Source of the DNA: Candidatus Fraserbacteria bacterium
GTDB taxonomy: Bacteria; Bipolaricaulota; Bipolaricaulia; RBG-16-55-9
Assembly: GCA_037442925.1 (NCBI GenBank)
Contig: JBBIPG010000066.1
Span: 1 to 10,467, forward strand
Direction of reading: 5' to 3'
Length of the DNA: 10,467 nt
Below, one piece after another: positions 3,923-10,467 of the stretch; position 1 is the stretch's first letter, and every line of letters starts with the position of its first letter. The translations under genes and the position numbers were made by a program. The notes under the pieces are model-generated. The model had not been told where the DNA came from and did no database searches. It saw nothing but the letters and a program-made list of their open reading frames with translations.

Positions 3923-5380
3923 ATGAGGCCTCGCGTTCGATTCGCTCCCAGCCCCACAGGGGAACTCCATGTGGGAGGCGCCCGCACCGCGCTCTTTAAC
4001 TGGCTCTTCGCCCGCAAGCACAGGGGCGTGTTTGTATTGCGTTTCGAAGACACGGACATTGAGCGCAATCGCCCAGAGTTGGTGGAGCCCATTCTGGAAA
4101 GTTTCCGCTGGCTTGGGATTCTCTGGGATGAGGGACCGTATTTTCAGAGCCAGCGCTTCGCTCTCTACAGAGAGTATGCCGAGCGACTGCTGCGCGAGGG
4201 CCAAGCCTATCGCTGCTATTGTGCACCAGAAGAGCTTGAACAAAAGCGTACGCAAGCGATGGCCGCCAAGCGCAAGCCCAAATATGATGGGCACTGCCGA
4301 AATCTCTCTTCTGAGGAGCAGAAACGCTACGAGGCGGAAGGCCGAAAGCCGGCTCTACGGATCAAAGCTCCCCAAAGCGGCATGACCATAGTGGAAGACC
4401 TTATTCGCGGTCATGTGGAGTTTGACAACACAGAACTCGATGATTTTATCATCTTCCGCTCCGATGGGCGGCCTACCTACAACTTCGCGGTTGTCGTCGA
4501 TGATGTGACCATGGGCATTACTCACGTGATCCGTGCGGATGAACACCTCAACAACACGCCCAAACAGATATTCATCTATGAAGCTTTGGGATATGCGCTC
4601 CCGCAGTTTGCTCATGTGCCCATGGTCTTGGCCAAAGATCGCACGAAGCTCTCTAAGCGCCACGGGGCCACAGCGGTGTTTGAGTTTCGAGATCGGGGCA
4701 TCCTACCGGAAGCGCTGATGAACCATCTAGCCCGATTGGGCTGGTCTTGCGGCGACCAAGAGATCTTCTCACGGGAGGAACTCATCGAGAAATTTTCCTT
4801 GGAGTCCGTGAACCCCGCCGCAGCCATCTTTGATGATGAAAAACTTCTGTGGCTCAATCACCATTACATCAAGACCGGAGACCAACGACGATTGGGTCAT
4901 CTCGTGCGCGCGTTTGCCGTCAGACGTGGCTTCCTCACCGAAGCCGAGGCTGGGAAAATCCCCGAAGAGCGTTGGGCTGCCGTTGTGGATTTTCTTAAAG
5001 AGCGCAAACGGACGCTCCTTGAACTTGCTGAAGGAGCGCTGCCTTTCCTTACGGATCGACTGAACTATGACCCGAAAGTCGTCGAGAAGTTCTTAACTCC
5101 AGACAAGGCAACGCTGCTGCAGGAGATTGCAGAGATTCTTCAGGCGATGTCCGACCAGGACTTCCGAGCTGCTGTTTTGGAAGAGAGGGTTCGAATTCAT
5201 TTGGAGTCACAAGGGCGGGCTCTGAAAGAGATCGCCCAGCCATGCCGGGTGGCGCTTACGGGAGTCACAACAGGCCCAGGGCTTTTTGAGACCATGGAGT
5301 TTCTCGGCAAAGCTTGGGTCATCGCGCGGCTTAAGCGGGCGATAGAAAAGATCCAAGGAGTCGGGTCCCCAGCTCGATGA
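3923..5380 (+). CDS. gltX: Glutamate--tRNA ligase
   Basis: RFAPSPTG, HIGH-like HVGG, LRFEDTD, CYC...YDGHC zinc motif, KMSKS-like KLSKR and a full anticodon-binding domain (485 aa). Confidence 0.97.
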   Translation: MRPRVRFAPSPTGELHVGGARTALFNWLFARKHRGVFVLRFEDTDIERNRPELVEPILESFRWLGILWDEGPYFQSQRFALYREYAERLLREGQAYRCYCAPEELEQKRTQAMAAKRKPKYDGHCRNLSSEEQKRYEAEGRKPALRIKAPQSGMTIVEDLIRGHVEFDNTELDDFIIFRSDGRPTYNFAVVVDDVTMGITHVIRADEHLNNTPKQIFIYEALGYALPQFAHVPMVLAKDRTKLSKRHGATAVFEFRDRGILPEALMNHLARLGWSCGDQEIFSREELIEKFSLESVNPAAAIFDDEKLLWLNHHYIKTGDQRRLGHLVRAFAVRRGFLTEAEAGKIPEERWAAVVDFLKERKRTLLELAEGALPFLTDRLNYDPKVVEKFLTPDKATLLQEIAEILQAMSDQDFRAAVLEERVRIHLESQGRALKEIAQPCRVALTGVTTGPGLFETMEFLGKAWVIARLKRAIEKIQGVGSPAR

Positions 5381-5961
5381 GGGTGACAGGGGGAATGCTC
5401 AAGGGACGCGAGCTTTTCGGTCCCAAGAGCGCCGAGATTCGCCCCATGCGCGATCAGGTACGCCTGGCGCTCTTTAGCATCCTCGAGCATGTCATTGAAG
5501 GCAGCCGGTTTCTTGATCTATTTGCGGGCACAGGCAGTGTAGGCATCGAGGCACTCAGTCGGGGAGCTGAGCACGCCGTCTTTGTGGATAGTTCCACGCA
5601 AGCCGTACAGATCATTCAGAAAAATCTACAGCAACTCGAACTGATGAAGCAAGCGACCGTCTATCGTGAAGACGCATTCCTGGCTCTAGAGGATCTCAGC
5701 AAGAGGGGACAGCGTTTTGATCTCGTCTTCGTGGGACCTCCCTATGGCAAGGGCTTAGTAGGCAGAACACTGGAGAGAATTTCTGAGCTAAATGTGCTGA
5801 ACCCCGATGCGATTGTTGTGACAGAAATTTTCAAGAAAGAGACTGTGCAAGACCGCTACGGTGCGTTAGAGCTTTTCGATGAGCGGCTGTACGGAGACAA
5901 TCGAATGAAGCTCTATCGAAAGACCTCGCCCACCGGAACCTTGAAGCCGGCGAGTACCTGA
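5377..5961 (+). CDS. rsmD: 16S rRNA m2G966 methyltransferase RsmD-like
   Basis: MRVTGGMLKGREL, RP..DQVR.ALF.IL, SAM motif LDLFAGTGSVGIEALSRGA and YG near the C-terminus. Motif IV is GPPY instead of DPPY. ATGA overlap with gltX. Confidence 0.9.
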   Translation: MRVTGGMLKGRELFGPKSAEIRPMRDQVRLALFSILEHVIEGSRFLDLFAGTGSVGIEALSRGAEHAVFVDSSTQAVQIIQKNLQQLELMKQATVYREDAFLALEDLSKRGQRFDLVFVGPPYGKGLVGRTLERISELNVLNPDAIVVTEIFKKETVQDRYGALELFDERLYGDNRMKLYRKTSPTGTLKPAST

Positions 5962-6515
5962 GAGCGTGCGGTCTCACCGGAATGGAATCTGTCGACGAGC
6001 TCATAGGCCCGTTCCCGCAGTACGTACACCTCGATCGTCTGCTCTTCCGGATCGATCAGCCAGTACTCTCCGACTCCGGCCTTGGCGTACTCGAATAGCT
6101 TTTCTCCGCGATCCACGCGACGGGTGCTCGGTGAGGTCACCTCGACAACCAAATCCGGCACGCCACAGGCTTGCTCCGCAATACGATCCCGATGCTCCTT
6201 GGAGATGAAGAAGATATCGGGTTCGCGGATCTTCCCCGGCCACAGCCGAACCGGAAGGGGGGCCAAGCGCACTACACCGAGTTGCTTCTGTTTTACAAAC
6301 ATCTCTAGCTGGAGAAACAAGTTTTGTAAGGCTGTCTGATGGCTGTACGTTGGATGCGGTGGCATGACCAATGCCCCCTCGGAGAGCTCTACAAGACGAT
6401 TCGTATCGGGCAGTGAAAAGTAGTCCTCTTCCGTCCATTGTCCTTGAGGCGGGTAGAGCTCTGCCACCGGTGCCGACTTGCCGCGCCTCGATCTTTTGAG
6501 CTTCGGATCATTCAC
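5913..6515 (-). CDS. Uma2 family (PD-(D/E)XK) putative endonuclease
   Basis: WTEEDY, VEL.EG, H, REPDI, PDLVVEVTSPS, K...YA..GV.EYWLIDP and S.VL.GF. The start is more likely GTG at 6515, 9 nt after GAGGAG (6525-6530), than the TTG at 6524. Confidence 0.92.
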   Translation of the reverse strand: MNDPKLKRSRRGKSAPVAELYPPQGQWTEEDYFSLPDTNRLVELSEGALVMPPHPTYSHQTALQNLFLQLEMFVKQKQLGVVRLAPLPVRLWPGKIREPDIFFISKEHRDRIAEQACGVPDLVVEVTSPSTRRVDRGEKLFEYAKAGVGEYWLIDPEEQTIEVYVLRERAYELVDRFHSGETARSQVLAGFKVPVGEVFR

Positions 6516-6589
6516 GAGGATCAACTCCTCTCGTATATCATCGCTCTATCATAGCCTGCTCGGAATTCTATCGCGAAAGGCCTTGCTCG

Positions 6590-6687
6590 GTCTAACGAGC
6601 TACCAATCACCTGCGGCGGGCGCTCATAAGCGCTGGCCGAGCCACGAACCCGCGGCGCCCGCCGTCAGGTGCATTGGCGTGTTAGAG
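6590..6687 (-). mobile_element. Integron attC recombination site (98 bp)
   Basis: Minus strand: R'' CTCTAAC (6687-6681) and R' GTTAGAC (6596-6590). The arms 6603-6623 and 6655-6677 form a 21-bp stem with two unpaired bases (T6665, C6672), both on the R''-proximal arm. It lies 46 bp downstream of the DUF4242 gene. Confidence 0.85.
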
Positions 6688-6733
6688 GGCGCTGTTGCCT
6701 CTCCCGCCAAGCGCGGGAACACATCGCCCATTG

Positions 6734-7006
6734 TCACTCCGCTGTGGTCGGATCGATTACCGATCGGACACGCGACACCTGGTTCGCGGGGAACCCGCCT
6801 TGCCGAGCGTGCTCGCGTACCGCCTCTTCATTCGGTGCGACGTACACACAGTAGATCTTATCGTCCGTGACGTAGCTCTGGACCCACTGGATCTGTGGCC
6901 CCATTTCTTTCAGAACACCGCATGACTTCTGCGAGATGGCTTGGAGCTCCTGCGGGGAGAGCTTCCCGGCCCCGGGGATCTCCCTCTCGATGACGAACTT
7001 CGGCAT
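6734..7006 (-). CDS. DUF4242 domain protein (SCO4226-like), carried as an integron gene cassette
   Basis: MPKFVIEREIPGAG...QWVQSYVTDDKIYCVYVAPNEEAVREHA..GGFPAN matches DUF4242. SD AGGAGGTG lies 6 nt before the ATG at 7006. Confidence 0.88.
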   Translation of the reverse strand: MPKFVIEREIPGAGKLSPQELQAISQKSCGVLKEMGPQIQWVQSYVTDDKIYCVYVAPNEEAVREHARQGGFPANQVSRVRSVIDPTTAE

Positions 7007-7057
7007 GATGGTCACCTCCTTTCTTTAGTTTCAGTACGCTTCGACTGGTCGGACGCT

Positions 7058-7095
7058 TTCTAACTAGTAATTATACCGCACCCGCGGTATAATAT
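7058..7095 (-). promoter_or_regulatory. Candidate attI site / cassette 5' junction with divergent -10 boxes
   Basis: The minus strand reads ...GCGGTATAATTACTAG|TTAGAA, with core GTTAGAA at 7064-7058 pairing 6/7 with the attC R''. A perfect inverted repeat ATTATACCGC-N4-GCGGTATAAT (7070-7093) carries TATAAT on each strand. Confidence 0.6.
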
Positions 7096-7263
7096 CTCTT
7101 TGAAGGTGATTATATAGATTTCATTCGCTTCCACGACAAGCGCCATCCACGAGAGATGGGCGTGCACAAGACCAGCCTGAATCAGCTCCTTAAATGCATA
7201 CGCATCGAGAATTGCAATGTGCGAGAAGGTCTGGTTACCATAAGGCATGAACCCCTGGCCTGA
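7093..7263 (+). pseudogene. intI: Integron integrase (IntI) remnant
   Basis: A start-less open frame reads [56 protein letters not shown]. FIRFHxxRHPxxMG is the IntI N-terminal signature (IntI1: FIRFHGVRHPATLG). It is divergent from the cassette, the usual integron layout. Confidence 0.72.
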
Positions 7264-7301
7264 ACGCGACATCCATCAGAGAAGTCATTCCGGAGGCAAG
7301 C

Positions 7302-9056
7302 ATGTCAACAGAAGGTGAACGAGATGGGCACCGTAAGATGAGCGCGAACGAATCCCCTGCTCCCTCCAACTTCATTAAGAAGATCATCGATGAGGACATA
7401 GCCAAGAACACCTTCGGTGGTCGGGTTCATACCCGGTTTCCCCCGGAACCCAACGGCTATCTGCATATTGGACACGCCAAATCGATCTGTCTCAACTTTG
7501 GCCTCGCCCAAGAATATGGTGGCCTATGCAATCTGCGCTTTGATGACACGAATCCCACAACAGAAGAAGCGGAATATGTGGAAGCGATGAAAGAAGACAT
7601 CCGCTGGCTAGGGTTCGATTGGGAAGATCGGGAGTTCTATGCTTCAGATTACTTCGATCAACTCTATCAATTCGCCGTCCAACTCATCAAGGAAGGCAAG
7701 GCGTACGTGGATAGCCTGAGCCCCGAGGAGATCAAAGAGCACCGTGGCCCCTGGTATGAGCAGGGCAAAGTGAGTCCCTACCGCCATCGATCCGTCGAAG
7801 AAAATCTGCAACTGTTTGAGCGAATGCGCGCCGGGGAATTCGCAGAAGGCACTCATACTCTACGCGCCAAGATCGATATGACTTCACCCAACATGAATCT
7901 GCGAGACCCCATTCTCTATCGCATCATCCACGCGAAGCATTATCGCACCGGAGACAAATGGTGCATCTACCCGACGTACGACTTCGCCCACGGGCAGAGC
8001 GATTCTATCGAAGGCATCACCCATTCCATCTGCACTCTGGAATTCGAAGACCATCGCCCGCTCTATGACTGGCTCCTCGATGCGTTGAAAATCCACCGTC
8101 CCAAGCAGATCGAATTCGCCCGCCTCAACCTCAGCTACACGGTGTTGAGCAAACGAAGGCTGATTGAACTGGTCGAAGGCGGATATGTGAGTGGCTGGGA
8201 TGATCCGCGGATGCCGACGATCTCCGGAATGCGGAGGCGCGGCTACACACCAGAGGCCATTCGCAATCTTTGTGAGAAGACGGGCGTGTCCAGAGTCAAT
8301 AGCGTCATTGACATGGCTATGCTCGAAGACTGTGTCCGTGAGGATCTGAACAAGCGTGCGCCTCGGGTGATGGCCGTGCTGCGCCCTCTGCGCGTCGTCA
8401 TTGAAAATTATCCGGAAGACGGAGTCGAATATCTCGATGCCATCAACAATCCCGAGGACCCCAGCATGGGGACCCGCAAAGTCCCCTTCTCCCGTGTACT
8501 CTACATCGAACGGGACGATTTCATGGAAGACCCACCACCGAAGTTCTATCGTCTCGCGCCCGGTCGTGAGGTCCGACTGCGATATGCGTATTTCCTCAAA
8601 TGTGTAGGGGTGGAGAAAGACGAGAAGACGGGCGAGATTGTGGAGCTGCGTTGTACCTACGATCCAAAGACGCGGGGTGGTCATGCCCCAGACGGACGCA
8701 AGGTCCAAGCGACGATTCACTGGGTCTCAGCAAGACACGCCATGGAGGCTGAGGTGCGCTTGTACGATCGGCTCTTCCTCAAAGAAGACCCCACGGACGT
8801 GCCGGAAGGAGTAGATTGGAAGACGAATATCAATCCGAACTCGCTGGTGACGTTGACCTCGTGCCAAGTGGAGCCGAGTTTGGCGGGCGCCAAGCCGGGG
8901 CATCGATACCAATTCGAGAGACTGGGTTATTTCTGCGTCGATCCTGTCGATTCTTCCCCAGAGAAGCTCGTATTCAACCGGACGGTATCATTGCGTGATC
9001 CCTGGGCCAAGGCCATGAAGACAGAGAAGAGATCAGAAAAAGGAGGAGAACCATGA
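7302..9056 (+). CDS. glnS: Glutamine--tRNA ligase
   Basis: [69 protein letters not shown] and [15 protein letters not shown] at 7292-7296. No C-terminal YqeY domain. Confidence 0.97.

Positions 9057-10343: not shown

Positions 10344-10467
<124 letters not shown>

Follow-up and report, generated by a model that had tools for sequence, protein, structure and literature searches.

We analysed the whole of contig JBBIPG010000066.1 (10,467 nucleotides, hereafter the window), which is contig C66 of the source assembly G000 (GCA_037442925.1, Candidatus Fraserbacteria bacterium; 2.07 Mb, 86 contigs, 94% complete). The gene order is argF, ilvE, gltX, rsmD, an integron block and glnS, where names that do not come from Pfam are those we take from our own reading of the sequences. 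An rsmD-type methyltransferase gene (5377..5961, plus strand; Pfam PF03602) forms the left flank of the block and glnS (7302..9056, plus strand) the right. A Uma2-family gene on the minus strand (5913..6524; Pfam PF05685, E 6e-37; PADLOC PDC-S03) meets rsmD tail to tail with a 49-bp overlap (5913-5961), such that the last rsmD residues are read from the antisense strand of the Uma2 gene and are unlike those of two relatives, G001 and G006. The Uma2 gene lies within the block that relatives are without. It is followed by no attC, and our covariance model R2 found no second attC in the window; the gene may be what is left of a second cassette, or it may have arrived independently. A promoter scan placed a promoter-like site for it at 6594-6565, overlapping the R' box of the attC described below. 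Toward glnS, a spacer without IntI similarity (7162..7301, plus strand) holds a promoter-like site for that gene (7212-7241; 8/12 matches, 18 bp spacing). Pieces of the flanks (the rsmD/Uma2 junction and 7152-7320) are near-identical in two runs from other studies at a depth of 3-9; the attC is uncovered in those two runs, from which neither its presence nor its absence follows. An Rfam scan returned nothing relevant, the one chance match (CC2171) scoring 24 bits against a gathering threshold of 75.

The ends of the window hold features of their own. At 72-1564, a ParE-type toxin-antitoxin pair has on its flanks an unmatched ORF and fragments of a DUF499 / HmaC-like AAA+ ATPase (187 of about 940-1020 aa), and this stretch is the remains of a defence locus. 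At 10344-10467, a tRNA-Ala gene and a cut tRNA gene, presumably tRNA-Ile by our own reading, are laid out as in a 16S-23S spacer, with no 23S after them. The single 23S match of the genome lies on C60 (G000:C60:459-4399) and spans 3941 bp compared with 2925 for the model, which suggests that the rRNA genes are unlinked and that the 23S gene has an insertion of about 1 kb.

The attC site (6590..6687) was recovered by its fold, by a rule scan and by a covariance model, and its top strand is the minus strand of the window. Its arms run from R'' (6687-6681) through a 5-nt spacer to L'' (6675-6668), then through a variable stem to L' (6611-6605), an 8-nt spacer and R' (6596-6590); on the bottom (plus) strand, the C at 6672 and, three positions on, the T at 6665 are extrahelical. 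All 17 model pairs are standard (17/17), as are the R and L pairs (13/13), the crossover is G|TT, and the hairpin (-32.5 kcal/mol, z -4.3) was equalled by 0/200 shuffles. The predicted probability of the recombinogenic fold is 0.75; values above 0.1 are counted as recombinogenic in the available text of an earlier study (PMC5371416). A strict first rule scan admitted no spacers but those of 5-6 nt and so passed over this site, with its R'-L' spacer of 8 nt; the rule was relaxed after the fact. The rule scan of the 2.07-Mb assembly gave seven sites scoring at least 15, among which this attC ranks first and is the only 17/17 one; the relaxed scan of a 2-Mb order-4 Markov sequence gave no site of at least 16. 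In 23 attC sites located next to 80 related integrases, the spacer is most often 8 nt long (10/23), and the same first extra base is found in 15/23. Covariance model R2 scored the site at 43.8 bits (a rough E of 1.1e-8), with the next match in the window at 9.6 bits. This model was trained on 13 outside sites with 7-9-nt spacers from our own scan, 12 from related-integrase loci, one from G001 and none from G000, and it favours the 8-nt-spacer class; the test is therefore independent in sequence, not in design. Across G000, where 150 of 674 candidates were scored, R2 gave sites on C71, C66, C52 and C45. In another model, R1 (22 sites), the left arms were misaligned and only five pairs were kept, and it was not used for any search.

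The gene cassette extends from the attI crossover to the attC crossover (6596..7063, minus strand; 468 bp) and carries a 90-aa gene of the DUF4242 / SCO4226-like family (6734..7006, minus strand; Pfam PF14026, E 4.5e-30, 104 bits), with its SD at 7015-7020, 8 nt upstream. Our guess from the family is that the product is a small ferredoxin-fold stress or metal protein; nickel binding should not be assumed. The protein scores 17.5 bits against NCBIfam NF033706, the nickel-binding SCO4226 equivalog, which is below the cut-off of 125, and a PDB sequence search with it gave 0 hits. PF14026 is common to the cassette protein and Streptomyces coelicolor SCO4226, but the latter, a nickel-binding protein, has nine histidines compared with one here, and the accessible text describes its nickel ligands as conserved only within Streptomyces (PMC4186839). 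An attC lies just downstream of the gene in few of its 80 closest outside relatives (strong in one, weak in three); thus, the DUF4242 gene is an occasional cassette gene. None of the three other copies scanned in the order has an attC. The domestication of the cassette gene proposed in a preliminary description of this DNA was not borne out, since the gene was found in only 5/35 genomes of the order.

At its other end the cassette abuts an attI site (7058..7114, minus strand) with an R box (7064-7058), a 5-nt spacer, an L box (7070-7076) and a G|TT crossover between 7064 and 7063. Further boxes are a second copy at 7084-7093 and a third, cut short, at 7109-7114; the second forms a 10-bp inverted repeat with 7070-7079 (z -5.7). 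This inverted repeat (7070-7093) is perfect, holds a TATAAT hexamer in each arm, one per strand, and is conserved in the attI family. Through a DNA search across 41 genomes we arrived at G015:C34, which is a complete integron that has attC-bearing toxin-antitoxin cassettes and a 331-aa IntI (TIGR02249, 471 bits against a cut-off of 265) and is located next to carB in a genome of the same order as G000 and another family. Window positions 7060-7114 are identical to G015:C34 positions 1-55 at 53/55 sites (96%, E 6e-19). A pattern search for this attI family gave 10 stretches in species genomes and 8 metagenome stretches (one of the former duplicates the reference locus and is not counted), with matches in Meiothermus, Calidithermus, Thermogemmatispora and Deinococcota, among others; in records of these four the attI family adjoins IntI. 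We found no paper on this attI family, or on intI stub retention, in the open-access literature.

The attI is followed by a fragment of the integrase gene. Window positions 7113-7161 correspond to G015:C34 positions 192-240 in the same order and orientation (39/49 nt identical) and encode, on the plus strand and with no start codon, residues 45-60 of the reference IntI. The stub peptide is identical to IntI at 13/16 residues (genome-wide tblastn E 0.013), reaches only E 0.22 with Pfam Phage_int_SAM_4 and has no match in NCBIfam. Between attI and stub, 138 bp comprising the start codon and 44 codons are lost, with a 2-bp overlap at the junction, and the locus has no IntI similarity beyond codon ~60; with 16 codons left, it is not a complete integron. 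Alternatively, 140 bp may have been deleted between two 6-bp repeats, with a TA slip afterwards; this fits the G027:C9 relic, the closest stub (44/49), where the unslipped form is found. We also considered the stub as an IntI with a 4-residue deletion and dropped this, because Y-I-I-N/D-F is the native sequence of this allele. An independent contig set, which may come from the source sample, tiles the region; one of its contigs spans the attI/stub junction with 0 differences, and its breaks at 7070 and 7093 coincide with the attI inverted repeat. No intact integrase was found in G000, where TIGR02249 matched best to a gene on C52 that has an internal deletion, and matches in a plasmid collection were limited to generic C-terminal integrase similarity covering 15% of the query. 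Since the G000 assembly is 94% complete and arrays sit at the contig ends of C52, C45 and C49, it may lack an intact intI that the genome has.

The preliminary description had recognised four signals, namely an attC hairpin at 6590-6687, for which it suggested a covariance-model check (here made with our own R2), a short SD-led minus-strand gene in a cassette of about 468 bp, an AT-rich attI-like site at G|TT, and an IntI peptide within 7093-7263. All four are real and stand in canonical order and orientation, and the integrase was deleted as it had proposed. The IntI similarity is confined to 7113/7114-7161, however; 7093-7112 is part of attI, and 7162-7263 has no match in G000, nor among the matches listed in the fetched loci. 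The locus is a decayed integron that consists of an intI remnant, an attI, one cassette and a well-formed attC.

The block as a whole is quite likely foreign to its place. In G001, of the same genus, and G006, of the same family, gltX, rsmD and glnS are contiguous (rsmD-glnS gaps of 53 bp and 14 bp, respectively); thus, the 1.34-kb block is a later insertion. This ancestral state rests on two genomes, as rsmD is next to glnS in 2/8 family genomes, and the stretches fetched upstream of glnS in the other six, one of only 516 bp, gave no rsmD match. Housekeeping DNA of G000 and G015 is 69-71% identical over long stretches and 81% over one 204-bp piece, and the remaining attI copies of G000 reach only 77-80% identity with the G015 site, so the 96% seen here is not explained by constraint alone. 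The genome with the closest stub, G027, is of the same genus as G015. We found no insertion scar, IS end or donor boundary at the locus. The same attI family is, moreover, present in other phyla. On this sequence evidence, the block looks less like an integron bound to its locus than like a mobile platform that was imported and then decayed.

We put the probability of the whole account, a horizontally acquired integron platform whose integrase was lost, at roughly three in four. Homology shows that the locus stems from an integron like that of G015:C34, with intI on the plus strand, an attI, and cassettes on the minus strand. It quite likely entered the rsmD-glnS gap as foreign DNA, with a neighbouring family of the same order as the probable donor. 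The anatomy of the site makes it highly probable that an active IntI then inserted the 468-bp DUF4242 cassette at the attI G|TT. The alignment shows that two deletions took away the first 44 codons and everything after codon ~60, so that no integrase is made.

The segment of intI that survives carries a putative cassette promoter, Pc, on the minus strand (7109..7139), with -35 TTGTCG (7139-7134) and -10 TATAAT (7114-7109), identified by consensus match only. Its spacing is 19 bp, compared with 17 bp in the intact gene: on the opposite strand of the G015:C34 gene, TTGCCG-17-TATAAT lies over codons 44-53, facing attI, and is the only match of at least 9/12 on both strands of the 1060-bp reference attI+intI. 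This promoter-like segment survives in eight relics of the allele, the window at 19 bp and seven at 17 bp (G000:C52, G015:C3, G020:C46, G027:C9, G001:C24, G001:C47 and G024:C87), one of the seven in the form TTGACA-17-TATGAT. An exact -10 at that place is found in 0/79 IntI genes from outside, and codon 45 is ATA in 7/7 copies compared versus 6/98 Ile codons in four window genes. However, in 51% of trials with reshuffled synonymous codons the reference gene acquired a promoter-like site at residues 40-50, and 74 outside intI genes showed no enrichment of antisense promoters (3 such sites versus 1.7 expected); the motif is thus largely a by-product of the IntI protein sequence. In the Meiothermus/Thermogemmatispora allele, we noticed after the fact a TG-extended -10 three codons away, in 3 intact records and 2 relics.

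Promoter-like sites of the host peak at spacings of 17 bp (137) and 18 bp (82), whereas 19 bp is at background (23). The predicted promoter of the window may nevertheless not be dead, because among sites with a perfect -10 the 19-bp spacing is slightly above background (14 versus 4-9). A second cassette promoter inside attI was sought, and neither TATAAT has a -35 of at least 4/6 at 16-18 bp or a TG extension. The expression of the cassette under an adjacent promoter, as first proposed, found no support, as there is no -35/-10 pair at 16-18 bp upstream of the cassette. We slightly favour the view that the stub is the ancestral Pc, such that what survived would be the part of intI that carries this promoter on its opposite strand. 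It seems rather likely that the promoter spacing went from 17 to 19 bp through the 138-bp deletion, and that the cassette is therefore weakly transcribed at best.

Relics elsewhere bear on why the stub is there. An N-terminal IntI query gave many relics in 35 genomes, and a mid-gene query of the same 35 gave no mid-gene-only relic. Nineteen of the 20 relics that pass residue 45 end at 51-85 (16/17 after merging likely shared events), and a uniform-breakpoint null, admittedly a crude one, was rejected for these ends. The count leaves out full-length or frameshifted genes (G015:C34, L269, L271, L273, L281, L283 and L285), contig ends (G010:C19 and L278), stretches with no protein match (L275, L276 and L286), attI-only or early-ending cases (C71, C49, C40, G001:C14, G001:C98, L282 and the second G001:C24 relic), G024:C14 and C-terminal pieces. 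A site-specific breakpoint at the stub end was rejected, since relic ends differ by up to 35 codons. Differences among the stubs fall mostly in third codon positions (pairwise counts of 65 versus 31 and 14), so that, judged by these substitutions, the stubs come from different once-intact alleles.

Several relics have unusual surroundings. In G020:C46 (L158), a promoter stub with a perfect TTGACA as its -35 and no attI faces a toxin-antitoxin-like pair, followed by attC sites. In G027:C9 (L172), the promoter stub, likewise with no attI, has the -10 box at its start and precedes a 289-aa lipoprotein-like gene by 25 nt. G000:C52:1-1903 (L001, L162) carries another intI, of a different type and internally deleted, in a reverse layout: gene and cassettes share a strand, an attI-like site comes after the 3' end of this intI, and the promoter stub of the first IntI type faces its start; G015:C3 (L171) has a similar layout. 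The C52 array runs off its contig; its continuation may be C45, at whose start lie the end of a GNAT-like gene and an attC.

The stub could also be neutral debris, a reading that we give somewhat less than an even chance and that leaves the rest of the account unchanged: deletions would consume intI from its far end and come to a halt close to attI, either by chance or through causes that have nothing to do with a promoter. Among other IntI alleles, six relics do end at 52-83 with a motif score of only 6-7/12 there, two relics lost the segment while keeping its flanks (G024:C14 and the second relic on G001:C24), and attI is found with little or no intI in C71, C49, C40, G001:C14, G001:C98 and L282; in the window, moreover, the promoter spacing is spoiled by the window's own deletion and the motif is half forced by the protein. 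Points against neutral debris are the loss here of the attI-proximal 138 bp with the more distant stub kept, a pattern shared by G027:C9, G001:C47, G000:C52/G015:C3, L275 and L279/L284, the stub of G027:C9, which starts at its -10 box close to a gene, and the lack of mid-gene-only relics in 35 genomes. Similar ruins in related microbes usually retain this stub, perhaps for the switch on it that drives captured genes. As a general rule, such selective retention is a tentative idea that we hold to be less probable than its opposite. On it, decay would be non-random, with intI eroded from both sides to a Pc-carrying island of ~50 bp that is reused as an ordinary promoter even after attI loss (G027:C9, G020:C46 and G000:C52); a thermophile-associated clade would have seeded several attI/promoter ruins per genome across phyla, and many SALINs and CALINs ascribed to attG might be such ruins, missed by pseudogene searches that use the catalytic half.

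Returning to the acquired platform, it follows from known specificity that a cassette with a single attC has one exit, attI x attC recombination by a cognate IntI. As no such IntI was found in the assembly, the cassette is locked. Since attI sites need their cognate integrase, as far as the available text states (PMC2095811), and attI x attC is the only exit, the excision assay with IntI1 suggested in the preliminary description is ill-chosen. A live satellite attI, at which an intact cognate intI elsewhere (unassembled or transient) still loads cassettes, here and at other solo attI sites, is unlikely. Its attI core, L box and second box are intact, the attC is predicted to be recombinogenic (pfold 0.75), the family has three further attI sites in G000, of which one adjoins a cassette and an attC, and CALINs are described, in the part of the text at hand, as mobilisable in trans (PMC4889954). 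On the other hand, no intact intI was found, the third box is cut short, and the other copies are diverged, one of them split by an IS at the crossover. The first of these copies is a solo attI with a 348-aa cassette gene, an attC and an IS (G000:C71:4388-5710), the second a solo attI before a 392-aa gene near a contig end (C49:15724-15792), and the third a solo attI with an IS-like element at its crossover (C40:19261-19289).

We consider it improbable that intI, attI, cassette and attC left a donor together, as one circle excised by the element's own integrase, and that attC x attG recombination then placed them upstream of a Uma2 gene that was already there. Such a route would fit the lack of an attC after Uma2, the Uma2 homologues of relatives, which are ordinary genes with no attC in the two loci scanned, and the presence of the clade at many unrelated loci without a common transposon; yet the other junction would fall in the deleted or unmatched part, and relatives also are without Uma2 at this place. 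The sedentary chromosomal integron of the preliminary description, old and native to the glnS locus with its cassette domesticated, is very improbable and already largely refuted. It would suit the setting among housekeeping genes, the intact attC and the only DUF4242 gene of the genome, but the block is absent from G001 and G006, where rsmD-glnS contiguity leaves none of the intact integrons expected upstream of glnS in relatives; attI identity across families is 96%, the intact relative sits at another locus, next to carB, and the gene is in 5/35 genomes of the order. The reading as a plain SALIN, in which a single cassette entered the genome at attG and the resemblances to attI and IntI are chance, might appeal because the stub alone is weak (Pfam E 0.22, none in NCBIfam) and lone cassettes can arise at attG (10.1101/2022.09.11.507474, in the text available), but is refuted by the attI match (E 6e-19) and by a stub in register with an intact integron.

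The locus, with one attC and no functional intI nearby, remains close to the SALIN and CALIN elements, which, in the available text of the reports describing them, are single or clustered attC sites that lack an integron integrase (10.1101/2022.09.11.507474, PMC4889954), and a detection tool would classify it among them. The 10.5-kb contig has one strong attC and no intI beyond the stub, as a SALIN does; SALINs formed at attG have no attI at the 5' junction of the cassette, whereas one is present here, together with a recognisable N-terminal intI stub. The locus is thus an integron ruin and not an attG insertion, formally a SALIN that retains its attI. As described in the accessible text, 95% of CALINs were reported without an intI pseudogene (PMC4889954), and the underlying search used intI_Cterm and PF00589 profiles at over 50% coverage, which could not see an N-terminal stub. 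With the intact ancestor type in hand, both deletions are readable to the base, and the locus can serve as a test case. If stubs are indeed kept for their promoter, they would provide a cheap genome-wide test of lone cassettes as integron ruins versus attG insertions, and would show how a recombinase gene can supply its host with promoters.

Chromosomal integrons of Xanthomonas, to the extent covered by the text available, have also lost intI by truncation or deletion with the array fixed (10.1101/2025.06.18.660453), but they are ancestral and occupy one locus (ilvD), whereas the locus described here is a late insertion and its clade is scattered over several loci per genome and several phyla. 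Integrons of class 1 and class 3, and Pseudomonas stutzeri IntIPstQ, are known to have their Pc within intI (PMC2791841, PMC8876359, both in part); there it lies opposite the 5' part of intI and faces attI, as does the Pc predicted here. The class 1 Pc is at IntI1 residues 31-39 and the predicted Pc at residues 44-53 of the reference IntI, each numbered on its own protein. Loss of costly integrases is likewise known, according to the portion of the literature at hand (PMC3510236), and the locus is a clean, well-resolved example of this known process.
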